Source of the DNA: Alphaproteobacteria bacterium | GTDB taxonomy: Bacteria; Pseudomonadota; Alphaproteobacteria; UBA9655 | Length of the DNA stretch: 35,072 nucleotides | Reading direction: 5' to 3' | Assembly (NCBI GenBank): GCA_035531295.1 | Contig: DATKTE010000294.1 | Coordinates: 1 to 35,072, forward strand | In this document: piece after piece, positions 1 to 34,985 of the stretch | How positions within the stretch are numbered: the stretch's first letter is position 1 | How the letters are laid out: every line of letters begins with the position of its first letter | Notes under the pieces: generated by a model | What the model saw: only the letters and a program-made list of their open reading frames with translations | Database searches by the model: none | What the model was told of the DNA's origin: nothing | Position numbers and translations under genes: made by a program

Positions 1-1091
1 GTCATACCATAAGTCGTCTCCAGCGCACGATAAGATCTCTCTAATAGAAGAAAAGTAAAGGGGAGAATCAGCAGAATTTGCATCACACCTAAGAAAAATT
101 CTTGAGGCATAAAGGGCATTTTAAGAGAAAGAAAGAATAAAAGAACGCCTAGAAGAGTTGCGGGAAATAAGAAATAAAATGACGCAAAATATCTTAAACT
201 TCGCCATCCAATTAGCACGAGCCCTAGAGAAATGGCGGCGCTTAAGGATCCAAAGCAGAGAGCTAATACAAAGCTTTTCCATAGGGCTTGCCAGACGAGA
301 GGGTTTTGGAGCGTCAGGGGAAGTGCGGTTAAAGAAGGGCCTAAAATGACAACCAGGGGAAGACATATAAGGCCCAATCCTATCCATATAAAAAGCTTTT
401 GAGAGGAATCTTTAAGTTCGGGCAGATCAGGTTTTTTTAGGGAATCACCTTGGGGGAAAGCTTTAATTAAAATGGTAAAAGCTGCTAAACTTAAAGTGAG
501 GATGAGTTGAAGGCTCACAAACCAAGAGACTTGTTCAAAATCATAAAAAAAGAAAAGGGCGTGATAGAGACCAGCACTCAGTGTTGTTTTTTGCGGCCCC
601 CCTCCGAGCACCATAATCGCCGTAAAGCTATTCAAAGCAAAGCAAAAACAAACCCAGGTCACCTCTAGGAAGGATTTGCGAAGTTGGGGCCACTCTATAA
701 AATAAAAGGTGTGCTTTGAGGAAAAATGCAATTGACGGCCGAGCTTATAGTGTTCCTCAGGAATCAATCGCCAAGCATTGACCAAGAGAAGCGCTATCCA
801 GGGACTATAAAAAACCACATGGACCGTAACGATACCAGCAAGACTGTAGATATTAAAAATACTCCCCATCAGCGTTAGAAAGCCTAAAATTCCGACGAGG
901 GCCGGTGTAATTAAGGGAATGCCTAAAAGTTTCATGCAAAACCGTGCAGGCCACCAGTTCTGATTCCACACAATAGCGCGGGCTATCAAAACAGCTAGCG
1001 GAATCGTAAAAAGAGTTGAAAGGGTCGCTTGCTTCAGCGTAAACCAAAAAACATAAAGGATGTAATTCACTGAATGAGACCCTCCACCCAT
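1..1091 (-). CDS. thiP: Thiamine ABC transporter permease ThiP, partial (3' end runs off the window at position 1)
   Basis: Missing from the ORF track because it has no stop inside the window. Hand translation of the minus strand from 1091 is open to position 1: MGGGSHSVNYILYVFWFTLKQATLSTLFTIPLAVLIARAI...MVLGGGPQKTTLSAGLYHALFFFYDFEQ... It is multi-TM and matches the ThiP signature (E. coli LGGGPQATTIELAIYQAL, from memory). The start is ATG 1091 or GTG 1070 (GTGA overlap with the thiB stop). It lies directly downstream of thiB. Confidence 0.8.
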   Translation of the reverse strand, partial: MGGGSHSVNYILYVFWFTLKQATLSTLFTIPLAVLIARAIVWNQNWWPARFCMKLLGIPLITPALVGILGFLTLMGSIFNIYSLAGIVTVHVVFYSPWIALLLVNAWRLIPEEHYKLGRQLHFSSKHTFYFIEWPQLRKSFLEVTWVCFCFALNSFTAIMVLGGGPQKTTLSAGLYHALFFFYDFEQVSWFVSLQLILTLSLAAFTILIKAFPQGDSLKKPDLPELKDSSQKLFIWIGLGLICLPLVVILGPSLTALPLTLQNPLVWQALWKSFVLALCFGSLSAAISLGLVLIGWRSLRYFASFYFLFPATLLGVLLFFLSLKMPFMPQEFFLGVMQILLILPFTFLLLERSYRALETTYGM

Positions 1092-2158
1092 TCCTTAATC
1101 CAGGCTTTTTGCGATTCTTTGACATCAGCCGAAGTATAAGAAATCCAGAAAGGTTGTGGGAAAAAGTTGTCAGCCTTTATCCAGGTCTCAGGCATGTCTC
1201 CCTTTGGATAAATCCACGCATGCGTGGCTATAAGGCGTTGAGCCTGTGGAGACAGAAGGAAGCTTAAAAAGTGATCAACAAGCTCTGGATGTTGGGTTGT
1301 CTTTAATTTACCCGCATAAATATTTGAACAAAGGTGCCCTTCGGAAAAAGGGAGAGCTTTCAGATGGGGCATTTCTTTTTCGAGTTCATTAAAGAGGCCA
1401 TCTGTTGTGTAGCTCAAAACAATCGGGGCTATGTCTTGCTTAAAAAGGGCGTAAGCTTCCGTCCATCCTTTCGTGAAGGTTAAGACATGTGCGGCTAAGG
1501 TTTTCCATTTTTGGGATGCTTTGTCTCCATATGCTTTTTTCATCCATACCAGAAACCCTAACCCCGTGATACTACTTCTCGGGTCTTGGAGGATAATGGG
1601 ATAGGAAGAGTTGATAAGTTCATCAAGTGTTTTTGGCGGGCAAGGAATTTTCTGGGAATTATAGACAAAAGCCAAACAATGGGATGCATAAGGAACAAGC
1701 TTATTAACATGTGTTGCATCAAGCCCAATGTCCTCAAGGCCCAGGACTACATCTGCTTTTGTTCTTTCTCCTTCAAAGTTCAGACGATTTATAACCAGAG
1801 GAATGGTATCCAGGACAACATATTGAATCTCACAATCACAGGTTTTTTCAAAAGCTTCCTTTAAATGAGCTCCAGGTCCATAGGAGGAAGACATAAAAGC
1901 TGAGTGCGTATAAACGGTGAGGATTTCTTTGGCATAAAGAGAAGAGGTGCTGATGAGAAACAGAAGGTTAAAGATAATAGATTGCTTTTGCCGTGGCGTA
2001 GGCTGGGTTGTCGATAGGCTCCTCCTGATGAATAACCCTGGATTGCTTTGTCGCTTAAGCTCCTCGCGATGACGAGCCTCCCTCTCCGTCATTGCGAGCC
2101 CATGAAGAGGGCGAAGCAATCCAGAAAAAATAAATTTTAAATTGTAAGGAATAAACAT
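1067..2158 (-). CDS. thiB: Thiamine/TPP ABC transporter periplasmic binding protein ThiB, with an unusual ~57-codon N-terminal extension containing a repeat element
   Basis: From KEILTVYTHSAFMSSSYGPGAHLKEAFEKTCDCEI...ADVVLGLED the protein is collinear with E. coli TbpA/ThiB ([34 protein letters not shown]...ADVVLGLDN). A signal-peptide-like KQSIIFNLLFLISTSSLYA precedes this. ATG 2158 is 7 nt after a GGAGGA that forms the 3' end of a TPP riboswitch. Confidence 0.9.
   Translation of the reverse strand: MFIPYNLKFIFSGLLRPLHGLAMTEREARHREELKRQSNPGLFIRRSLSTTQPTPRQKQSIIFNLLFLISTSSLYAKEILTVYTHSAFMSSSYGPGAHLKEAFEKTCDCEIQYVVLDTIPLVINRLNFEGERTKADVVLGLEDIGLDATHVNKLVPYASHCLAFVYNSQKIPCPPKTLDELINSSYPIILQDPRSSITGLGFLVWMKKAYGDKASQKWKTLAAHVLTFTKGWTEAYALFKQDIAPIVLSYTTDGLFNELEKEMPHLKALPFSEGHLCSNIYAGKLKTTQHPELVDHFLSFLLSPQAQRLIATHAWIYPKGDMPETWIKADNFFPQPFWISYTSADVKESQKAWIKEWVEGLIQ
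2038..2124. repeat. Palindromic MITE/RPE-like element, family A, copy 1 (inside the thiB 5' coding region)
   Basis: Termini are CTGGATTGCTTTGTCGC...GCGAAGCAATCCAG. An inner inverted repeat is CTCGCGATGACGAG / TCCGTCATTGCGAG. Length is 87 bp. The same termini and inner hairpin recur at 21314-21430 and 27562-27657. Confidence 0.8.
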
Positions 2159-2240
2159 CTCATTTCCTCCGCCGGTATGAGCCGGATCAGGTTCACGGGT
2201 TTGATCTCAGCTCTTCCCTTAAGAGCACCCCGATGAGTGA
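2159..2240 (-). promoter_or_regulatory. TPP (THI-element) riboswitch controlling thiBP
   Basis: The minus strand reads CUCAUCGGGGUGCUCUUAAGGGAAGAGCUGAGAUCAAACCCGUGAACCUGAUCCGGCUCAUACCGGCGGAGGAAAUGAG followed by AUG. It contains the conserved GGGGUGC, CUGAGA, ACCC and GAACCUGAUCCGG..ACCGGCG blocks. P1 is CUCAU/AUGAG. The SD GGAGGA and the start codon abut the P1 3' strand. Confidence 0.85.
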
Positions 2241-2244
2241 GTTC

Positions 2245-2273
2245 ATTTTACGGTAGCTGTGGTTGAAGTTCAA
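2245..2273 (-). promoter_or_regulatory. Sigma70-type promoter for the riboswitch-thiBP transcript
   Basis: The minus strand reads TTGAAC (2273-2268), a 17-nt spacer, then TAAAAT (2250-2245). This ends about 7 nt before the first P1 nucleotide of the riboswitch. Confidence 0.55.
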
Positions 2274-2374: not shown

Positions 2375-3214
2375 TTAATACTCTAAAAATAAGATATCCA
2401 CACGACGATTATGACCTTCTACCTTTGGGCCCGGGGCTTCCCCAGCAGCCTTGGTAGAAATGTGGTGAGGAGAAACTCCTCTGCGGACAAGTTCTTTTTT
2501 TACCATCTGTGCGCGTTTCTCGGAAAGTTCCATATTATTTTCAGCATCACCGATTTTGTCTGTACGGCCGATAAGAAGGATGTGACCTGGATATCCTGCT
2601 GGAGAATCTTTGACAGAAGCTACTCTATCAATAACGCCTGCAGCTTCGGCATTAATATGTGTGCTTCCAAAATCGAAAAACACCATGTTTGCAGGCATTG
2701 TTTCAAGGACGCCACCTCTGAGCATGAGTTCAACTTCGGCCATCGCATGGTAAAATTCAGCCCTGCAATTGGCGATATCTTCTTTTTGCCATCCTTCAGC
2801 TTGCTGCTCTACCCAACAGTCAAAATGAGCTTGAGCATGAGCCGACATCTTTGGTGCGATTTGCCATGCTCCGGATTCTAAAGCACGCATTAATCGCTCT
2901 CGTGCTATAGCAAGCTCTGGAATCTTGTCGCTCTCAATATCCCATTTGCAAAGTGGGGTGGGTATTACGATACGACCTTGCTTAGCGAGGATTGCTTTAC
3001 AAAAGTACCAATTGGCGGACCAATCATCATACATGATAGCTTGCTCAGTATTTCCAAGGGTTTCATATTCTTCAGCGAGTGTTCTTGTGAATTCTGGGCC
3101 CATTGGCATTGTGTCTTTTAGAAGCAAGCGGTGGTATTCTGTACAACCTGTCGCTACAAACAATGCCATAAGAGCACTTAATTTAACACTTTTAGCTAAA
3201 AATCTATTTTTCAT
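2375..3214 (-). CDS. OmpA/MotB-domain lipoprotein (peptidoglycan-associated)
   Basis: The C-terminus ILLIGRTDKIGDAENNMELSEKRAQMVKKELVRRGV...NRRVDILF is an OmpA-like peptidoglycan-binding domain. The N-terminus MKNRFLAKSVKLSALMALFVATGC has a lipobox. I moved the start to ATG 3214, which follows AGGGAG at good spacing, instead of the track start 3256. Confidence 0.8.
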   Translation of the reverse strand: MKNRFLAKSVKLSALMALFVATGCTEYHRLLLKDTMPMGPEFTRTLAEEYETLGNTEQAIMYDDWSANWYFCKAILAKQGRIVIPTPLCKWDIESDKIPELAIARERLMRALESGAWQIAPKMSAHAQAHFDCWVEQQAEGWQKEDIANCRAEFYHAMAEVELMLRGGVLETMPANMVFFDFGSTHINAEAAGVIDRVASVKDSPAGYPGHILLIGRTDKIGDAENNMELSEKRAQMVKKELVRRGVSPHHISTKAAGEAPGPKVEGHNRRVDILFLEY

Positions 3215-3499
3215 ATTTGACTCCCTTTCTATTAACGCAAGTAACATAAACTTCATATATGTCCTACCCTAAGCGGCCTAACTATCTGAAAATTCCCCTT
3301 GGGTCTTTTAAATTTGATTAAGGTAAAACAAAAACCTTATAACTTCTTAAAATTTTTATCATTTAATGAAAAAATTCACACAAAAATGTTCCGGGGGCCT
3401 TAAAAATTGAGAGGAGTGAGGCAATTTTAACACTCTTTAACGTAATTTTAAGACGCTCAAATATAGAGTTAAGGAGTCAATATCAGGGATATCCTATCG

Positions 3500-6442: not shown

Positions 6443-6476
6443 CCCAGGTGCATCACTCAAGAATAACGCACCTGGG
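6443..6476. terminator. Hairpin between convergent genes (possible bidirectional terminator)
   Basis: CCCAGGTGC (6443-6451) pairs with GCACCTGGG (6468-6476) around a 16-nt loop. Pyrimidine/T-rich tails follow on both strands. Confidence 0.4.
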
Positions 6477-6503
6477 GTTCTTCAGCTTATTTTTCCTAAC
6501 TGG

Positions 6504-7244
6504 TTAAACCCTCACCAATTCATAAAGGGCAAGGGCTGCTGCAACTGATACGTTTAATGTTGGGAAAGCAGGGTCTGTGGGGAGCTTGGTTAAAAAGTCA
6601 CATTTTTCTTGAGTCAGGCGACGAAGCCCTTCCCCTTCCGCCCCCATAATAAGAGCCACCTTTTCGGGTAAATCTGATTTAGAAAGCATTTTAGGTGCAT
6701 TCTCATCAAGGCCTACGGTCCAGAATCCTTCTTTCTTAAGGTCATCCAAGGTACGCGCAAGATTGGTCACTTGCCAAAGAGGCAAGCTATCAAGGGCACC
6801 GGAGGCAGCTTTCGCCAAAACCCCACTTAAAGGAGGCGCATTCCGATCTGTCATGACAACGCCCAATGCTCCCAAAGCTCTGGCCGTTCTTAAGATCGCT
6901 CCCACATTATGAGGGTCTGTGACTTGATCCAACACCACAAGAACCCCCGCGCTGGTATTGCGTAACTCATGTAGTGGGCTTTCTGGCAAGGGAGCGACCT
7001 CCATCGCAATTCCCTGATGTACAGACCCTTCCGGCAATAGGCGGGAAAGTGAAGAAGCATCAAGAATTTCTACTTTATAGGCATGATTTTCTTTAGAAAG
7101 CCCAAGTTCTTTTATCATTGATTCTGTAATCAAAAGACGAAAGCAGCGTCTTTTCGGATTTTCAAGGGCAGCTTTGCACGCATGGATCCCCCAAAGCCAC
7201 AGACGGGAAGGATCTTGGGGGGGACGAGGGGGCCGTTTTGTCAT
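6504..7244 (-). CDS. rlmB: 23S rRNA (guanosine-2'-O)-methyltransferase RlmB (SpoU/TrmH family)
   Basis: LWGIHACKAALENPKRR is the substrate-binding N-domain. SpoU motifs are LDQVTDPHNVGAILRTARALGALGVV, MGAEGEGLR and LNVSVAAALALYE. Confidence 0.85.
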   Translation of the reverse strand: MTKRPPRPPQDPSRLWLWGIHACKAALENPKRRCFRLLITESMIKELGLSKENHAYKVEILDASSLSRLLPEGSVHQGIAMEVAPLPESPLHELRNTSAGVLVVLDQVTDPHNVGAILRTARALGALGVVMTDRNAPPLSGVLAKAASGALDSLPLWQVTNLARTLDDLKKEGFWTVGLDENAPKMLSKSDLPEKVALIMGAEGEGLRRLTQEKCDFLTKLPTDPAFPTLNVSVAAALALYELVRV

Positions 7245-11442: not shown

Positions 11443-14400
11443 TCATGTTTTTTTAGCGGGAATAGGGGCAATATGTTTTAACTCCGTAATAAGATGCTCC
11501 ATAGCTCCGCCCCCTTTTTGAATGACTGTATCAACGGAAACTTTAATACGAGCTTTATCCGCATCACTTAAATCCTGGTTCGTACAAATGATGACAGGGG
11601 TGTTTTTCCCCTTTTCCGTACTTCGCAAACGTCTTAAAAATTCTAATCCACCAACATTTGGCATGAGAAGGTCAAGCACGATAACATCGGGAGTGGTTTT
11701 CTCTGCTATTTCTAGCCCATGCTCGGGATCAGTTTCAAAAAAGAGTTTTAAATTTGAATCTTTTAAATATTGTTGAACTAATTTTAAAAATTTAGGGTCA
11801 TCGTCAACAAATAAGACGGATTTTGATTCCTCTGGAAGAACACCAGCTTGTTTAAGCGCCGTCAGTATGTCTTCTGATTGGGTGGGCTTTAGCAAGAAGT
11901 TCTGTACCTTACAGCCGAAACTTGCGGACTTTTGGGGGATGACTGTAACGACAATAGCAGGAGTCTCTTGGTTGATTCCATCATTTCGAATGGACCTCAA
12001 AATATTCCATCCATTCATGTCGGGAAGGAGTAAATCAAGGGTAATGGCATCGAAGTGTTCCACCCGACATAGCTCTATAGCCTTAGCTCCAGTAAAAGCT
12101 GTTTCTATCGCATAACCTGCTGTTGTAAGAGTTTTGGCAATAAGTGCGCTTTCCTTTTTATCGTCCTCGACAATCAGAATCTTAGGCGCATTTTTTTCAA
12201 CGAGTTGAGTGGCCGTCGTTACAACAGGGTTTCTTGCTTTTTCCTTTTCAATCTTATGAGGGACTAAAGGCAGGGTAACAAAGAATGTACTCCCTTTCCC
12301 AGGGGTGCTGCTTACCCCAACCTCTCCGCCCTGAGCTTCGACGATACGCAAAGTAAGAGCAAGCCCAAGGCCCGTTCCCTGATATTTCTTAGCTGCCGTG
12401 GCATTAAGTTGTTGAAATTCTGAGAAGAGTTTGGGTATATCCTTCTTACTGATTCCAATTCCATTATCTTCCACCTCCAAACGAAAATTCTTACGTCCTT
12501 CTGGAACGACCCGAATTTCAACGGTTCCACCTTCGTTCGTAAATTTCAAGGCATTAGAGATATAATTATAGAGAATCTGTTTAAATTTAGCAGGATCAAG
12601 TGTAGCACTCGCAACCTTAGGGTCCACCTTAATTGAAACAGTTATTTTGTTCTTAGCGATTAAGGTTCGAAGAATATCGCAGACTTCACCTATGACTTTA
12701 TCAAAATCAACTTTTTCAGGATGAAATTCCATTTTACCGGATTCAACTTTGGCTAAATCGAGAATATCATTAATCAGTTGAAGGAGGTGACGAGAGCTGG
12801 TTAAGATGTCTCCAAGATACTCTTTATGCTCAGGAGACACAGGCCCCACTTTCCCCAAATGCATCAATTCCGTAAAACCGATGATAGCATTTAGAGGGGT
12901 GCGCAATTCATGAGACATATTCGCTAAAAACTCACTTTTTATCAGCGTGGCTTCTTGTAAAAGACGATTTTGTTCAGCGAGCTCAACATTTTTTGTGCGT
13001 AACCCTGCTTGTCTGTTTTGTTCACTTATATCTTTGGAAATCAACACATAACCTACTGGTTTTCCAAGTTTATCTCGACGTAAAGTGAGGGCCAAGGATG
13101 CAGGAAATCTTTCCCCATTTTTTCTAACGCTTTCTAAAACACCTTCTTCTTTCCCAGTGCTCAGAGCTGCATCAAGGACGGCTTGCAGCCGACCAGATTT
13201 AATATCTTCTGGTGCATGCAAAACCCTGGTATTTTGCTTACCGATCATTTCTTCTGCTGTATAACCATAGTTGAGCCTAGCCCCTTCATTCCAGGCAAGG
13301 ATTTTCCCATCCAAATCTTCAGCGATGATGGAATAAGCGGTTGAACTTTCTAGGATATCATTTAAAAAACTGGTCTTATCCTGTAATTCGCTGTTTTGTT
13401 TTCGGATTTGTTCTTCTAAACGCTTTTGTTCAGTGACGTCTCTGGCAACCGTAAATACCCCACTTAAGTTTCCTCGCGTATCTCTAAAGGTTGTCGCATT
13501 ACAGGACACAAACGTTTCTTTACCATCTTTTGCCTTAATGGTTAGATCGTAATTAATGACTTTTTCAGAAGCCAACACACTCCGGATGCAATCTTCCGCT
13601 CGTTTTGGATCGGTGAAATTTGCACTGAAAGGGGTGCCAATCAGTTCTTCTCGGGTTCGATCTGTAACGATACACATTTGTTTGTTCACATCTGTAATAA
13701 TTCCAATAACATCTGTGATCATGAAAACATCCACACTCGATTCAAGAAGGGAAAGGTTATTATTGAGCTGTTCCTCTAAGGCTTGTCTTTGCTGTTTCAG
13801 GTCCGTAATATCCTTTGAAATTAACACATAGCCAACCGGTTTTTTCTCTGCATCCAGTCTTAACGTAACAGCAACTGATGCATAGAATCGTTCCCCATTT
13901 TTTCGTAAGCGCTCAAACTCGCCTTCTGCGTTACCTGTTTTTAAAGCAAGATCGAGGATTTCTTGAGCTCTACCGGATTTAATGTCTTCTGGTACATGTA
14001 AAATGGATGCATTTTTCTTACCAATCATTTCATCGGCGGTATAATTATAGTTACGTCTAGCGCCTTCATTCCAGGCAATTATATTTCCCTCCAAATCTAG
14101 GGCAATGATAGAATTTGTGGTTGAGCTTTCCAAAAGATCATGAAAAAAATCAGTCGCTTCCTTTAAGGCAATATTTTGCGCGAGAGCTTTTTCTTCTAAG
14201 CGTCTCTGTTCCGTAATATCGTGAGCGGTCGCAAAAATTCCCTTCAATTCACCATTTTTCAAACGAAGCGTCGTTGAATTAAAAGAGACAGGGGTTAGTA
14301 TGCCAGTGCGGGATTTCACGATCAGTTCGTAATTTGTGATACGATTTTCTGAAAGAACTTTTCGTATCGCATCCTCAGCATGTTTGGGATTCGTAAAAAA

Positions 14401-15003
14401 GTTTTTAAAGGGGGCGCCTATTAATTCCTCACGAGAAAACTCTGTAATATCACATGCTTTTTGGTTGACATCGTTGATAATACCCAAAGTATCCGTTGCT
14501 ATCAAAACATCCAGACTCGATTCTATTAAACTACGGTTATATTCTTCAGATTGTTTTATCGATTGTATTTCATTTTGTAGCTCTGGTAGATCGCGTGCTA
14601 TAAATGTGTATCCAGTGGGCTTTCCAGAAGAGTCCATTCTTAAAGTAATTGTGAAAAGAGGTGCTAATCGGCTGCCATCTTTTTTTACACAATTTAATTC
14701 ACCGAACCATAAACCTTGATTTCTAACTTCATCAAAAATTTTTTCGAGTTTTATGGATTCTAAGTCAGCTGTATCTTGGAGAAGAAAAATTTTTTGAGAG
14801 CTAAGAACCTCTCCTGGCTCATAACCAAAAATTCTACGGGCACCTTCGTTCCATGTTAAAATTACTCCGTCAAGATCCGTGGCAATGATTGAATGCTCGG
14901 TTGCGCTCTCTAAAATTGAACGTGTTATATTGAATTTCTTCTTCAAATTTTTATTGGATTTATGAGATATTGGTGAAGATACACCTCTAACTTCGTCATT
15001 CAT
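11443..15003 (-). CDS. Cytoplasmic hybrid sensor histidine kinase: 5 PAS - HisKA - HATPase_c - REC - REC
   Basis: No TM segment. Five PAS modules are arranged A-B-A-B-A. The H-box is EFLANMSHELRTPLNAIIGF and the G-boxes are EDNGIGI...GTGLGLAL. The two C-terminal receivers contain ITLDLLLPDMNG...LLKP and VIVLDLLMPNVGG...IQKG. Confidence 0.9.
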   Translation of the reverse strand: MNDEVRGVSSPISHKSNKNLKKKFNITRSILESATEHSIIATDLDGVILTWNEGARRIFGYEPGEVLSSQKIFLLQDTADLESIKLEKIFDEVRNQGLWFGELNCVKKDGSRLAPLFTITLRMDSSGKPTGYTFIARDLPELQNEIQSIKQSEEYNRSLIESSLDVLIATDTLGIINDVNQKACDITEFSREELIGAPFKNFFTNPKHAEDAIRKVLSENRITNYELIVKSRTGILTPVSFNSTTLRLKNGELKGIFATAHDITEQRRLEEKALAQNIALKEATDFFHDLLESSTTNSIIALDLEGNIIAWNEGARRNYNYTADEMIGKKNASILHVPEDIKSGRAQEILDLALKTGNAEGEFERLRKNGERFYASVAVTLRLDAEKKPVGYVLISKDITDLKQQRQALEEQLNNNLSLLESSVDVFMITDVIGIITDVNKQMCIVTDRTREELIGTPFSANFTDPKRAEDCIRSVLASEKVINYDLTIKAKDGKETFVSCNATTFRDTRGNLSGVFTVARDVTEQKRLEEQIRKQNSELQDKTSFLNDILESSTAYSIIAEDLDGKILAWNEGARLNYGYTAEEMIGKQNTRVLHAPEDIKSGRLQAVLDAALSTGKEEGVLESVRKNGERFPASLALTLRRDKLGKPVGYVLISKDISEQNRQAGLRTKNVELAEQNRLLQEATLIKSEFLANMSHELRTPLNAIIGFTELMHLGKVGPVSPEHKEYLGDILTSSRHLLQLINDILDLAKVESGKMEFHPEKVDFDKVIGEVCDILRTLIAKNKITVSIKVDPKVASATLDPAKFKQILYNYISNALKFTNEGGTVEIRVVPEGRKNFRLEVEDNGIGISKKDIPKLFSEFQQLNATAAKKYQGTGLGLALTLRIVEAQGGEVGVSSTPGKGSTFFVTLPLVPHKIEKEKARNPVVTTATQLVEKNAPKILIVEDDKKESALIAKTLTTAGYAIETAFTGAKAIELCRVEHFDAITLDLLLPDMNGWNILRSIRNDGINQETPAIVVTVIPQKSASFGCKVQNFLLKPTQSEDILTALKQAGVLPEESKSVLFVDDDPKFLKLVQQYLKDSNLKLFFETDPEHGLEIAEKTTPDVIVLDLLMPNVGGLEFLRRLRSTEKGKNTPVIICTNQDLSDADKARIKVSVDTVIQKGGGAMEHLITELKHIAPIPAKKT
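13024..14913 (-). repeat. Intragenic tandem duplication: 780-nt (260-codon) two-PAS unit repeated 2.4 times within the kinase gene
   Basis: The (L/I)(L/I)ESS module starts recur at residues 31, 160, 291, 420 and 551. By eye, type-A modules (WNEGAR...GY...E.IGK) at 291 and 551 are about 70 percent identical, and type-B modules (VN.. C.. T....REELIG.PF..NFT.PK.AED.IR) about 55-60 percent. Identical DNA runs remain, e.g. GCCTTCATTCCAGGCAA on the plus strand at about 13283 and 14063. Confidence 0.8.
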
Positions 15004-21210: not shown

Positions 21211-21313
21211 AACAAAATCTCCTTTTACTGAGGATGCTTATAGAATATTTCGCATATAATGTCTACGTTTGATTTTAGTAATGAGCGCTACAGGCAATGG
21301 CTTGGAAGATGTT

Positions 21314-21430
21314 TGGATTGCTTTGGCTCACAAGGAGTCTCGCAATGATGCTCTCCACCGGTCATCATGCGAGGAGCGTGAGCTTCGACACGCCTACGCC
21401 AAAGGCTATGCTGCGTCGAGAGCAATCCAG
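21314..21430. repeat. Palindromic MITE/RPE-like element, family A, copy 2 (intergenic)
   Basis: TGGATTGCTTTGGCTCAC...CTCGCAATGATG-CTCTCCACCGGT-CATCATGCGAG...GTCGAGAGCAATCCAG. It accounts for the spurious track ORF 21269-21454. Confidence 0.8.
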
Positions 21431-21460
21431 AAAATGGGAAGCTCTTACTCCTAAGAAACC

Positions 21461-25796: not shown

Positions 25797-25820
25797 AAAA
25801 TGTTTCACGTGAAACATTTT
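25797..25820. repeat. 24-bp perfect palindrome AAAATGTTTCACGTGAAACATTTT (copy 1): terminator-like hairpin or operator
   Basis: Self-complementary over all 24 nt. It lies 49 nt after the bicupin stop and 62 nt before the rsmI start. A second copy is at 28861-28884. Confidence 0.7.
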
Positions 25821-25868
25821 TGGATGATCGAAAGAAGTTTAGATTGCGTCAGAGCAAAGCAATTCACC

Positions 25869-27352: not shown

Positions 27353-27561
27353 GATATTTCCTTTCAGTTTTTGTATACTTAAATATGATAAGAAATATGT
27401 ATTAATTATTAATTAAAAAAGCTTTATTCTTGCCGAATAGAAATGACAATTTACTGTTTTCACACATAAAAACTAACTCTTGACCAAATTTAGACATTGT
27501 CCTCTTTTATGAGGGGCATTATAAGAGAGATATACTCTTCACACTTGAGGGAACCTTATTT

Positions 27562-27657
27562 CTGGATCGCCACGCCCCCAAAGGGCGCTCGCGAAGACGA
27601 TGGTGGGAAACGTCCCCCAGCCGTCTTTGCGAGGAGTTTTGCTCCGAAGCAATCCAG
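27562..27657. repeat. Palindromic MITE/RPE-like element, family A, copy 3 (intergenic)
   Basis: CTGGATCGCCACGCC...CTCGCGAAGACGATGG...CCGTCTTTGCGAG...CCGAAGCAATCCAG. Confidence 0.8.
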
Positions 27658-27793
27658 GAATCTTCAGGTTTGTTAGGAATAGAAGTCGTTTCACTGTTTT
27701 ATTCTTTAAGAAAAATAACGTTATTTTTTAATGGAAAGAATTTTAGATAGGACATTCTTAAGAATAAGTTGTTGTTAATTAATGGAGTTATTG

Positions 27794-28860: not shown

Positions 28861-28884
28861 AAAATGTTTCACGTGAAACAATTT
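28861..28884. repeat. Second copy of the TGTTTCACGTGAAACA palindrome (AAAATGTTTCACGTGAAACAATTT)
   Basis: The 16-bp core 28865-28880 is identical to copy 1, with one mismatch in the flanking arms. It sits between the candidate 6S RNA and the cyclo-ligase start. On the minus strand the hairpin is followed by UUUUC. Confidence 0.7.
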
Positions 28885-29055
28885 TGTGTGGAAGAGGGCG
28901 CCGCAAAGACCGTCAGCGATATTTATCCTCGTGTGGCCCGCATGTGCAGGTGGGCGCCATTTGCCAAAATCCACGGATTAAGACGAAAACAGCTCCCTTA
29001 AGGAAGTTATCGGCCCCAGGGAAATGCACGCTTAACGCATCCCACAGCAACCCTC
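28885..29055 (-). ncRNA. ssrS: Candidate 6S RNA (SsrS)
   Basis: A 261-bp gap with no credible ORF lies immediately upstream of, and co-oriented with, the 5-formyl-THF cyclo-ligase gene, which is the classic ssrS-ygfA linkage. It forms a GC-rich island. By hand, a long imperfect closing helix pairs 29046-29040 UGUGGGA with 28893-28887 UUCCACA, 29029-29026 GUGC with 28901-28898 GCGC, and 29019-29011 CUGGGGCCG with 28912-28904 CGGUCUUUG. Beyond it lie a large internal bubble and an apical hairpin (28959-28934). The segment CCCUGGGGCCGAUAACUU resembles E. coli 6S CCCUGAGCCGAUAUUU (from memory). Ends are approximate. Confidence 0.45.
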
Positions 29056-34535: not shown

Positions 34536-34788
34536 GTATTATACCATTTAGGAAAAATAAACTGACTAACCCCCGATGCGTCATCCCGGAATTTAAAAAC
34601 CCTTCGCGACCCCTTTTAGGGGAAGCGTTAGGGTTTTTTAATATCCGGGACCCAGAAAATGCTTTGAATTACATAAAATCCTGGGTCCGGGATATTAAGA
34701 AAAGCTAGCGCTCACACACGTTCGCTTACCTTTTCTAAATTCTGGGATGACGCCGTGTGGTTAGGTTAATTAATCAAAATGGTATTAC
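34536..34788. repeat. 253-bp composite nested palindrome (family B element(s))
   Basis: Three tiers of inverted repeats. Outer: GTATTATACCATTT / AAATGGTATTAC. Middle: CTAACCCCCGATGCGTCATCCCGGAATTT (34566-34594) / AAATTCTGGGATGACGCCGTGTGGTTAG (34737-34764). Inner: AATATCCGGGACCCAG (34640-34655) / CTGGGTCCGGGATATT (34681-34696) around a 25-nt loop. Each arm also carries its own local hairpin. Confidence 0.75.
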
Positions 34789-34985
34789 ATGCTGTTTTAC
34801 ATTCGTTAGCTCTTAGCCTGTTGACGAGAAGAGCCTCAGTCAAGCAATGCTAAATTTCTTTTGGAAAACAAGCATTTCTTGCCAAGGATGACATTGGAAG
34901 GCGGGTATTTACTTAGAAATAGATTGCCTTTAACAAATAAATATTATAAATAAGATGATATTGTTTTCAATATGTGGTGTTTTTT

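Follow-up and report, generated by a model that had tools for sequence, protein, structure and literature searches.

In the window, i.e., the entire 35,072-nt stretch of DNA analyzed herein, a minus-strand ORF of 363 aa (1067..2158) encodes a ThiB/TbpA protein whose start codon directly follows a TPP riboswitch and whose N-terminal region is occupied by palindromic repeats. The features of this locus, together with two further copies of the repeat family (family A), were as follows.

3..1070, minus strand: thiP (permease), whose GTG start overlaps the thiB stop
1067..1930, minus strand: mature ThiB, thiamine ABC transporter periplasmic binding protein, stop codon included (homology, dN/dS)
1931..1977, minus strand: surviving ancestral signal peptide as predicted from hydropathy and the 2QRY alignment, core and cleavage region IIFNLLFLISTSSLYA
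1978..2037, minus strand: remnant (right half) of a second family-A copy, decayed and akin to the variant at 21312-21432 (local alignment)
2038..2124, minus strand: complete family-A palindromic element of 87 bp (arms; covariance model, 87 bits)
2125..2155, minus strand: AT-rich 5' flank, codons 2-11 (FIPYNLKFIF) and base 1 of codon 12 (alignment)
2156..2158, minus strand: start codon ATG, orthologous to the signal-peptide Met1 of short-form relatives
2166..2170, minus strand: Shine-Dalgarno sequence GGAGG inside the aptamer (sequence and Rfam structure line)
2147-2242, minus strand: TPP riboswitch aptamer (THI element), full-length match to RF00059 at 73.9 bits
2245..2273, minus strand: promoter-like site TTGAAC-17 nt-TAAAAT, just 5' of the aptamer (consensus scan)
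21312..21432: intergenic family-A copy, long variant with an internal insertion of ~32 nt (covariance model, 71.6 bits)
27561..27659: another intergenic family-A copy, its inner stem showing compensatory changes (covariance model, 80 bits)

The protein matched the NCBIfam subfamily model TIGR01254 at 214.2 bits (cut-off 93.4) and E. coli TbpA (2QRY) with an E-value of 5.5e-62, and its score of 221.1 bits against the equivalog model TIGR01276 (thiB) lay below the cut-off of 317.15. The window ThiB is a diverged member, and the name thiB was assigned because of the TIGR01254 and 2QRY matches together with the adjacent thiP and the TPP riboswitch. For the mature portion, dN/dS was 0.07-0.12 in comparisons of the window with nine relatives and 0.06-0.12 at dS of 0.68-1.03 among the relatives with a long N-terminus (long forms, described below), the short forms behaving likewise; judging from these ratios, mature ThiB is under strong purifying selection. 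Since the contig derives from a metagenome, where repeats can mislead assemblers, and an insertion in a signal peptide could inactivate the gene, thiB might be regarded as a decaying pseudogene or as an assembly artefact caused by the repeats. Such a reading is, however, contradicted by the dN/dS values, by the full-length and open 363-codon frame, by the overlapping thiP frame, which is intact over 356 codons as far as the window edge, and by the recurrence of the architecture in five assemblies obtained independently from different samples, and we thus consider it extremely unlikely.

The aptamer scored well above the Rfam gathering score of 54.3 and covered model positions 1-105 of 105. Its 3' end reads GGAGGAAAUGAG, and the AUG at 2158 comes directly after it: the 3' strand of helix P1 (AUGAG, 2159-2163) abuts the ATG with no spacer, and the AGG of the Shine-Dalgarno sequence, located 7 nt upstream of the AUG, constitutes the 3' strand of helix P4. 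Neither a separate expression platform between the aptamer and the thiB ORF nor a terminator-like site was found. In E. coli, thiM and thiB are likewise preceded by TPP aptamers, and these translational riboswitches control access to the ribosome-binding site (PMC10578472). Unlike in those systems, the Shine-Dalgarno sequence of the present locus lies in the P4 strand of the aptamer itself and the AUG is adjacent to P1, and hence TPP binding would hide both of them together and the start codon would be fixed in place, being unable to shift without loss of regulation. As for the sequences further upstream, the CTTGAAC motif of the promoter-like site was present at the same place in the relatives, and 2245..2273 may function as a promoter. 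An 11-nt perfect complementarity between the start region (ATGTTTATTCC, 2148-2158) and GGAATAAACAT (2300-2310), a pairing with the potential to enclose the riboswitch, was rejected as a chance or lineage-specific match because it was absent from all 20 relatives and its upstream partner lies 5' of the promoter-like site. MFE folding of the entire leader failed to reproduce the aptamer structure and was left out as evidence of switching.

The comparison set consisted of 21 related thiB loci, namely the window and L001-L020, all from metagenome assemblies. The nearest named relative was 'Alphaproteobacteria bacterium 41-28'. The window and L001-L013 were analyzed with cmscan, and L014-L020 by motif and by identity of the 40 nt upstream. 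The aptamer scored 65.7-75 bits in all 13 relatives tested, and the riboswitch end and the ATG were retained in every one of the 21 loci, with CCGGCGGAGGAAAT(T)GAG-ATG invariant and the GGAGG unchanged throughout. In the 16 loci with no insertion (short forms), this ATG encodes Met1 of an ordinary signal peptide, 19 residues long (MLKYLL...SSLYG|KE). These observations were in good agreement with the proposal of the earlier note that AUG 2158 is the real, riboswitch-gated start. In the other five loci, the window included, repeat elements occur just past the ATG; these long forms (363, 390, 390, 406 and 375 aa) carry inserts of 57-100 codons whose contents differ completely, comprising families A and B and a third type. 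What they have in common is the ATG, a flank of ~10 codons (MSxPxNLKYxF) and the element terminus CTGGATTGCT. The flank diverges fast (5-12 differences per 33 nt) and contains a 6-nt in-frame deletion in L016. That the long forms arose once is suggested by these shared junctions and not by the neighbour-joining tree of mature ThiB, in which their monophyly received a bootstrap value of 0.12. A scan of metagenomes for the pattern riboswitch-ATG-N(20-40)-GATTGCT yielded no long forms beyond the known contigs.

In the window, as the earlier note had claimed, the reading frame is preserved through a palindromic repeat that separates the ATG from the signal-peptide core: the element at 2038-2124 spans 29 codons and begins 11 codons after AUG 2158. 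Its outer arms CTGGATTGCTT/AAGCAATCCAG are paired at 11 of 11 positions and its inner arms CTCGCGATGACG/CGTCATTGCGAG at 11 of 12, and it is translated as (S)GLLRPLHGLAMTEREARHREELKRQSNP, two of its six frames being free of stops. The 141-nt segment holding the hairpin (2020-2160) was calculated to fold at about -42 kcal/mol, and such a stable hairpin, starting 36 nt past the AUG, could lower translation. The alignment with the relatives upheld the element as an 87-bp, frame-preserving unit but not as a clean insertion of 87 bp, since the insertion relative to the short forms amounts to 171 nt (57 codons) in total. The ~60 nt on the 3' side of the element (1978-2037) are not derived from thiB; they aligned locally with the copy at 21312-21432 with a score of 25, which was matched or beaten by 1 of 2000 shuffles, and terminate in AAGCAATCTA, a terminus that L014, L016 and L001 have in the same place. 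On the basis of these alignments, the window insert is a composite that combines one complete 87-bp copy with the right half of one that is older, and the insertion as a whole is read as an old one, shared with relatives and rebuilt through nested elements. Likewise, the insert does lie ahead of the signal-peptide core as had been supposed, but it is situated inside the ancestral signal peptide, past its few initial codons, and not upstream of it. While a possible TTAAA(A)TAY duplication surrounds the whole insertion in the long forms, it is complicated by 15 extra nt, and no target-site duplication was evident at the three copies in the window.

The dispersed nature of family A was assessed with a covariance model, which superseded blastn-short and a regular expression for the termini. 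Three copies are present in the 35-kb window, the one at 21312-21432 sitting between rpmE and a Mg-chelatase-like gene, and further ones occur at the loci of the relatives. The thiB copy gave the best score (87 bits, E=6.5e-20), and the hits, which included sequences outside the training set, spanned 26.4-87 bits, with pairing in the helices preserved via compensatory changes. By these measures, the element is a member of a dispersed repeat family and not a chance palindrome. With the three window copies as queries, blastn-short recovered few relatives, and pairing of the termini by regular expression was discarded owing to false positives in the thiB 3' end. An Rfam scan of the element at E<=1 returned no known family, no RAYT or transposase partner of the element was identified, and a query with the 51-aa element-encoded peptide gave no candidate for in-frame copies elsewhere. 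With 11/11 paired terminal inverted repeats, a small size (87-121 bp) and no transposase gene, the family is MITE-like. Similarly to MITEs and REP-like elements (ERIC, Correia, BOX, REP/BIME), it combines terminal inverted repeats of at least 11 bp, a length of 87-120 bp and many copies with a stable hairpin showing compensatory changes, whereas it is longer and more branched than classical REPs, having an outer stem, a central stem and two side hairpins.

The inserts of all five long forms had no stop in frame 0, while frames 1 and 2 contained 1-9 stops each. The probabilities of a stop-free frame 0 by chance, estimated from dinucleotide shuffles, were 0.12, 0.009, 0.013, 0.013 and 0.15 for the five, so that the open frame of the window alone (P=0.12) is just mildly unlikely; three of the five were retrieved via called ORFs, which biases them toward open frames, and the window and L001 were obtained independently of ORF calling. 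At the ancestral Met position the long forms have AAG, CCT, CCT, ATT or CTT, and none of the five possesses a conserved alternative start codon or Shine-Dalgarno site. The element of the window itself contains two potential start codons in frame, TTG (codon 14) and ATG (codon 23), both devoid of a Shine-Dalgarno site, and from the element to the hydrophobic core no in-frame ATG, GTG or TTG occurs, just as the earlier note had stated. The AGGAGG at 2021-2026 was correctly described there as lacking a usable start, though it turned out to be the decayed GCGAGGAG arm of the second copy; as an internal Shine-Dalgarno site it was rejected, the sole start-like codon at usable spacing (ATC) being out of frame and meeting a stop. 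We also considered internal initiation at non-canonical codons, e.g., ATT/ATC at codons 61-62 or CTG at codon 66. Such near-cognate codons do exist at residues 61, 62 and 66 of the window, and their use would restore an N-terminal, near-normal signal peptide. They are, however, unconserved among the long forms and have no Shine-Dalgarno-like sequence ahead of them, the AGGAGG being at least 33 nt upstream, and a start at codon 61 or later leaves no positive n-region. Moreover, thiB would then be uncoupled from an invariant riboswitch, and the opening of frame 0 over 57-100 codons in five lineages would be left unexplained. Internal initiation is therefore judged very unlikely. Considering that the ribosome-binding site lies in the aptamer, the start could not be re-created downstream, and the insertions would thus be read through rather than bypassed. 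Among the possibilities raised for the buried signal peptide, tolerance of the element-encoded peptide is accordingly the one favoured by the open frame 0 in the five long forms, the lack of an alternative start or Shine-Dalgarno site, and the low dN/dS (0.06-0.12).

The peptides encoded by the inserts themselves showed no conservation at the peptide level, as evidenced by a dN/dS of about 0.9. In contrast, the nucleotide sequence of the insert differed by 6.5% between L001 and L015, the differences being spread evenly over the codon positions (6, 5 and 3), against a pS of 0.45 at synonymous sites and a divergence of 36% in the 5' flank; no other 216-nt block of the gene is as conserved as this insert. 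This, together with the compensatory changes that keep the family-A helices paired, would be expected if the repeats had been co-opted within the thiB message as a functional element at the RNA or DNA level, e.g., in mRNA stability, translation pacing or protein binding, and were kept on that account. On the other hand, the comparison consists of a single orthologous pair, the conservation could be explained by gene conversion with other genomic copies (a related copy is present at 34829-34893 of the window), the completely different contents of the long forms argue against one specific function, and 16 relatives have no insert at all. Recruitment thus appears rather improbable, and we rate equally low a broader version in which the n-region is a permissive landing pad for nested element families, some of whose inserts became nucleotide-constrained and were recruited as an RNA/DNA module.

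The signal-peptide core and mature ThiB begin ~57 codons past AUG 2158. The hydrophobic core, IIFNLLFLIST, reached 2.32 in its best 11-residue Kyte-Doolittle window, a value equal to those of the short forms, and ends 5 residues before SLYA|K. By this heuristic, the arrangement agrees with that of cleavable Sec signals, in which a core of 7-15 residues leads into a short polar stretch with a small residue at -1, adjacent to the mature protein. Cleavage is predicted before K77, the residue aligned with the position at which mature E. coli TbpA starts in 2QRY. A Sec signal is expected at the extreme N-terminus behind a positive n-region of 1-5 residues, but the core of the window starts at around residue 58-61 of the sole supported ORF, behind an n-region of at least 57 residues with a net charge of +7 (+7 to +14 for the extensions of the long forms), which is atypical. 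In the AlphaFold model, pLDDT was below 50 for residues 1-24 and 36-58, a helix was predicted at residues 57-69, and the mature domain was confident. The core and the cleavage region SSLY[GA]|KE are retained in the long forms, the core of L001 being weakly hydrophobic (best window below 1.6). A compromised export signal, though less favoured than tolerance of the element-encoded peptide, may still be considered.

An N-terminal extension preceding an otherwise normal signal peptide is not without precedent. The ESPR of autotransporters, an extension of about 25-60 residues, is placed before a normal n-h-c signal peptide, and these proteins are exported and cleaved. The long extension of ThiB is similarly followed by an otherwise normal signal peptide with predicted export and cleavage, although it is repeat-derived, variable and 57-100 residues long, unlike the conserved and dedicated ESPR. 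Alternatively, the extension may stay uncleaved, with the core serving as an N-in signal anchor and ThiB working as a protein tethered at the inner membrane. Other bacteria have functional binding proteins of this tethered kind, those of Gram-positive bacteria being lipid-anchored; all the evidence for read-through fits this topology equally, and the strongly positive extension favours the N-in orientation. However, the core is short, its about 12-14 hydrophobic residues being typical of cleavable signals and not of anchors, and SSLY[GA]|KE has been conserved across all five long forms although their dS is 0.7-1.0, which suggests that the cleavage region is still in use. An anchored ThiB is therefore regarded as unlikely.

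Taken together, we consider it likely that thiB is translated from AUG 2158 through the repeats and that the extension is removed with the signal peptide. In this proposed mechanism, AUG 2158 would be the sole start served by a ribosome-binding site, that built into P4. The palindromic repeats would have landed just past this start, in the n-region of what was originally a 19-residue signal peptide, and the survivors would be only those insertions that kept the frame and contained no stop. The ribosome would then traverse the repeats to give a precursor in which a 57-residue unstructured, positive extension precedes the core and the cleavage site, both left intact. We infer that, from this initiation onward, the extension remains on the cytoplasmic side while the core engages Sec, and that signal peptidase cuts after SLYA. 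The resulting mature ThiB would be identical to that of the insertion-free relatives, and for this reason the insertion would be tolerated.

In-frame palindromic elements within working genes have been described as Rickettsia RPEs (Ogata et al. 2000; PMC10969869), and no new mechanism is thus implied, such elements having been known in Rickettsia since 2000. Family A resembles RPEs in consisting of short dispersed palindromes that lack their own transposase and occur as both intergenic and in-ORF copies, and the copy in the thiB ORF keeps the frame and adds a peptide to a host gene that stays functional under purifying selection. The likeness is one of architecture, the sequence family being a different one in an alphaproteobacterial MAG host. 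The thiB case further differs in the nesting of several element families at a single site and in the placement of the insert, which occupies the n-region of a signal peptide predicted to be cleavable and would probably be lost with it instead of being displayed on the folded protein. By analogy, the thiB insert may be regarded as an RPE-like case of a new family in a new context; the literature on repeat insertions in signal peptides and on the peptide motif provided nothing specific.

For annotation, the long N-terminus of thiB should be treated as real sequence and not as a mis-called start, and the repeat-derived peptides (GLLR..LAMTE..RHRE..KQSNP) should not be taken for protein domains. 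With the ribosome-binding site located inside a TPP aptamer, the locus would illustrate how a regulatory RNA constrains the structure of the gene that it controls. The five lineages with 57-100 extra residues would also represent a natural experiment on the load that an export signal can bear before its core.

On the minus strand of 1067-2273, the thiB region runs from a promoter-like site through a TPP aptamer to an ATG:

2273-2245, minus strand, promoter-like TTGAAC-17-TAAAAT (sequence scan)
2242-2147, minus strand, full-length TPP riboswitch aptamer (RF00059, 73.9 bits; gathering score 54.3)
2170-2166, minus strand, Shine-Dalgarno (SD) GGAGG inside the aptamer (AGG is the P4 3' strand in the Rfam structure line)
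2163-2159, minus strand, P1 3' strand AUGAG of the aptamer (sequence and Rfam alignment)
2158-2156, minus strand, start ATG, with no spacer after the aptamer (sequence)

The GGAGG at 2170-2166 is the sole SD sequence for thiB, and a scan of the leader found neither a terminator-like site nor space for a separate expression platform, in contrast to the E. coli thiB and thiM TPP switches, which possess one. The ORF opened by ATG 2158 (363 codons) scored 214 bits against the ThiB/TbpA subfamily TIGR01254 (cut-off 93.4) and missed the cut-off of the equivalog TIGR01276 (221 vs 317). Alignment with E. coli TbpA (2QRY; E=5.5e-62) placed the first mature TbpA residue at K77, the ThiB residue before which signal-peptide cleavage is predicted. 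thiP comes next, its GTG start overlapping thiB, and its frame runs without a stop over 356 codons to the window edge.

In a protein search, close homologues fell into two length classes, and DNA was obtained for 20 related loci (L001-L020). In the 16 short forms, the ATG is followed by a 19-residue signal peptide (MLKYLLAFVLFISTSSLYG, then KE... after the cleavage site), and the proteins comprise 305-316 aa. The five long forms are the window (ThiB of 363 aa), L001 from Alphaproteobacteria bacterium 41-28 (390 aa), L015 (390 aa), L014 (406 aa) and L016 (375 aa). In all five, the same ATG is followed by about 10 AT-rich codons (MSxPxNLKYxF), the left terminus CTGGATTGCT of a palindromic repeat family (family A), a variable interior and the matching right terminus, either as AAGCAATCCAG or in decayed form. 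What is left of the ancestral peptide (..LKYF..) comes after this, then the hydrophobic core and SSLY[GA], with KE after the cleavage site. All 21 loci, window included, have an identical CCGGCGGAGGAAAT(T)GAG immediately before the ATG, and the riboswitch was present in 13 of 13 relatives' loci scanned with Rfam. Since the counterpart of ATG 2158 is Met1 of the signal peptide in 16 loci, sequence comparison identifies ATG 2158 as the ancestral, conserved thiB start, in agreement with the earlier note, which had taken it for the real riboswitch-gated start. The ancestral Met position in the long forms now reads AAG, CCT, CCT, ATT or CTT. At L006 (JBEPVR010000082.1), the public thiB protein (P0019, 285 aa) apparently begins ~31 residues inside the gene; the riboswitch-adjacent ATG there gives an intact 316-aa ThiB with a normal signal peptide, and the start was probably mis-called in the source. 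An 11-nt perfect complementarity between the window start region (2148-2158) and 2300-2310, upstream of the riboswitch and of the promoter-like site, is missing in all 20 relatives and is probably due to chance.

A repeat search in the window placed the palindrome within thiB in a real repeat family:

2038-2124, minus strand, family-A element in thiB, 87 bp or 29 codons, outer arms of 11 nt perfect, inner arms 11/12
21312-21432, intergenic family-A copy, long variant
27561-27659, intergenic family-A copy

Six copies, taken from the window and from contigs of relatives, could be aligned to a common layout in which the outer stem CUGGAUUGCU/AGCAAUCCAG and the central stem CUCGCAAUGACG/CGUCAUUGCGAG are accompanied by two small side hairpins; at 11 of 30 pairs, one or more copies preserve the pairing by a double change. 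A covariance model trained on these six gave its top score to the thiB copy (87 bits) and also picked up non-training copies in L001, L014 and L016, while an Rfam scan returned no family matching the element. In one short-form relative, a further copy (L004:3715-3816) immediately precedes the thiB promoter region; thus the family also occurs in lineages with uninterrupted thiB. Between thiQ and greA of L001, a family-A element (6957-7109) leaves an open frame, so that a mechanical ORF starting at a TTG lengthens GreA by ~95 residues, probably a pitfall of annotation and no real extension. greA is called at 185 aa in L016 vs 158 aa in L014.

The earlier note had asked whether the 87 bp are a clean insertion; comparison with the relatives' 5' regions upheld an in-frame element, but the insert is composite, and the 171 nt by which the window exceeds the short forms consist entirely of flank and repeat DNA. 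Beyond the 87-bp copy, a stretch of 60 nt (1978-2037) aligns with the right half of the long variant at 21312-21432, including the inner arm (GTCATCATGCGAGGAGC vs TTCATCAGGAGGAGC) and the terminus, a match equalled by 1 of 2000 shuffles. Hence the AGGAGG at 2021-2026, to which the note had drawn attention, represents a repeat motif in decay, and its candidacy as a ribosome-binding site was rejected. The L014 insert contains a left fragment and two more family-A copies; in L001 and L015, family-A ends enclose a palindrome of another family, and in L016 a third, GC-rich palindrome. Judged from these sequences, the thiB site has been struck repeatedly. The window also has a partial copy of the L001/L015 family, at 34829-34893 (87% identity over 68 nt). 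After the OmpA-like gene (2375-3256, minus strand), a GC-rich hairpin at 2306-2342 (ATTCCCCTCACC-13 nt-GGTGAGGGGAAT) has a motif, CCCCTCACCC...GGGTGAGGGG, that looks like the third palindrome type, a resemblance only.

Elsewhere in the window, inverted repeats of 42-43 nt at its end (34543-34774) are related to 6463-6504. A 6S RNA gene (SsrS, 28894-29053, minus strand; RF00013, 61.3 bits vs a gathering score of 46.4) adjoins the second of two copies of a near-perfect 24-26-nt palindrome AAAATGTTTCACGTGAAACATTTT (25797-25822 and 28861-28886, 96% identity), which could be a terminator or operator-like site. The 1186-codon ORF at 11443-15003 (minus strand) contains a 300-nt direct repeat (13028-13327 and 13808-14107, 71% identity, 780 nt apart), and its sequence suggests an internally repeated protein.

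Frame 0 is stop-free in all five inserts (56-99 codons), against between 1 and 9 stops in each of the other two forward frames (1 and 2). In the thiB family-A copy itself, two of six frames are stop-free, the frame in use among them. In dinucleotide shuffles, frame 0 came out stop-free with P of 0.12 for the window and 0.009, 0.013, 0.013 and 0.15 for the other long forms; the product, with L001 and L015 counted as one, is ~2e-6, only an upper bound on the strength of evidence because the inserts lack full independence and called ORFs had led to three of the long forms. The 5' flank of L016 carries an in-frame deletion of 6 nt. Mature-region dN/dS among long-form pairs was 0.06-0.12 at dS 0.68-1.03, indistinguishable from short-form pairs; this result went against a pseudogene, and the idea that thiB is a pseudogene or artefact is extremely improbable.

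Non-canonical initiation inside the gene would spare the signal peptide its extension. As the earlier note had stated, however, scanning the window thiB found no in-frame ATG, GTG or TTG between element and core. Within the element, a TTG at codon 14 and an ATG at codon 23 lie in the hairpin without an SD site, and near-cognate codons by the core (ATT 61, ATC 62, CTG 66) also lack one and show no conservation across the remaining long forms. The AGGAGG indeed has no usable start: the sole start-like codon at SD spacing, an ATC, is out of frame and runs to a stop. We regard internal initiation as very unlikely and infer that translation begins at 2158.

The orthologous inserts L001:3758-3973 and L015:6038-6252 differ at 14 of 216 nt (6.5%), evenly over codon positions (dN/dS 0.9), and form the most conserved 216-nt block of thiB in this pair; in the same gene, synonymous pS is 0.45 and the 11-codon 5' flank differs at 12 of 33 nt (36%). 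For this single pair, constraint at the nucleotide level, gene conversion by copies elsewhere or between-lineage exchange is possible. That the repeats have been recruited to act at the RNA level in the thiB message is, in our estimate, unlikely.

The window core IIFNLLFLIST has a hydrophobicity of 2.32, equal to the short forms, and the cleavage region is conserved. The N-terminal extension of the window protein has a net charge of +7, and those of other long forms reach +14, which fits an N-in orientation under the positive-inside rule. In the AlphaFold model, pLDDT is <50 for residues 1-24 and 36-58, residues 57-69 form a helix, and a confidently predicted binding-protein fold starts at residue 78. 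That the core serves as an uncleaved signal anchor is rather unlikely; the precursor would probably be exported via Sec and cut before K77.

What characterizes Rickettsia RPEs is that these palindromes lodge in frame inside genes that remain functional (PMC10969869). The thiB element resembles them in behaviour and appears to represent another sequence family, in an unclassified alphaproteobacterial lineage. It shares inverted termini with MITEs, without a clear target-site duplication. Long signal-peptide extensions also occur in autotransporters, where they are dedicated, conserved sequences, unlike the repeat-derived extension of the thiB long forms. A literature search returned no report of repeats within a signal peptide behind a riboswitch-locked start, a weak sign of novelty.

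Taken together, the analysis confirmed the observation and supported the earlier interpretation of a palindrome in frame behind a riboswitch-gated thiB start. The sequence comparisons show the layout of the region, the orthology of its start codon, maintenance of the frame and selection acting on mature ThiB. Because the ribosome-binding site lies within the TPP aptamer, the start codon would be fixed, and an insertion after it would survive only when translated through. The signal-peptide n-region may be the sole part of ThiB where added residues cost little, since they would be removed along with the signal.
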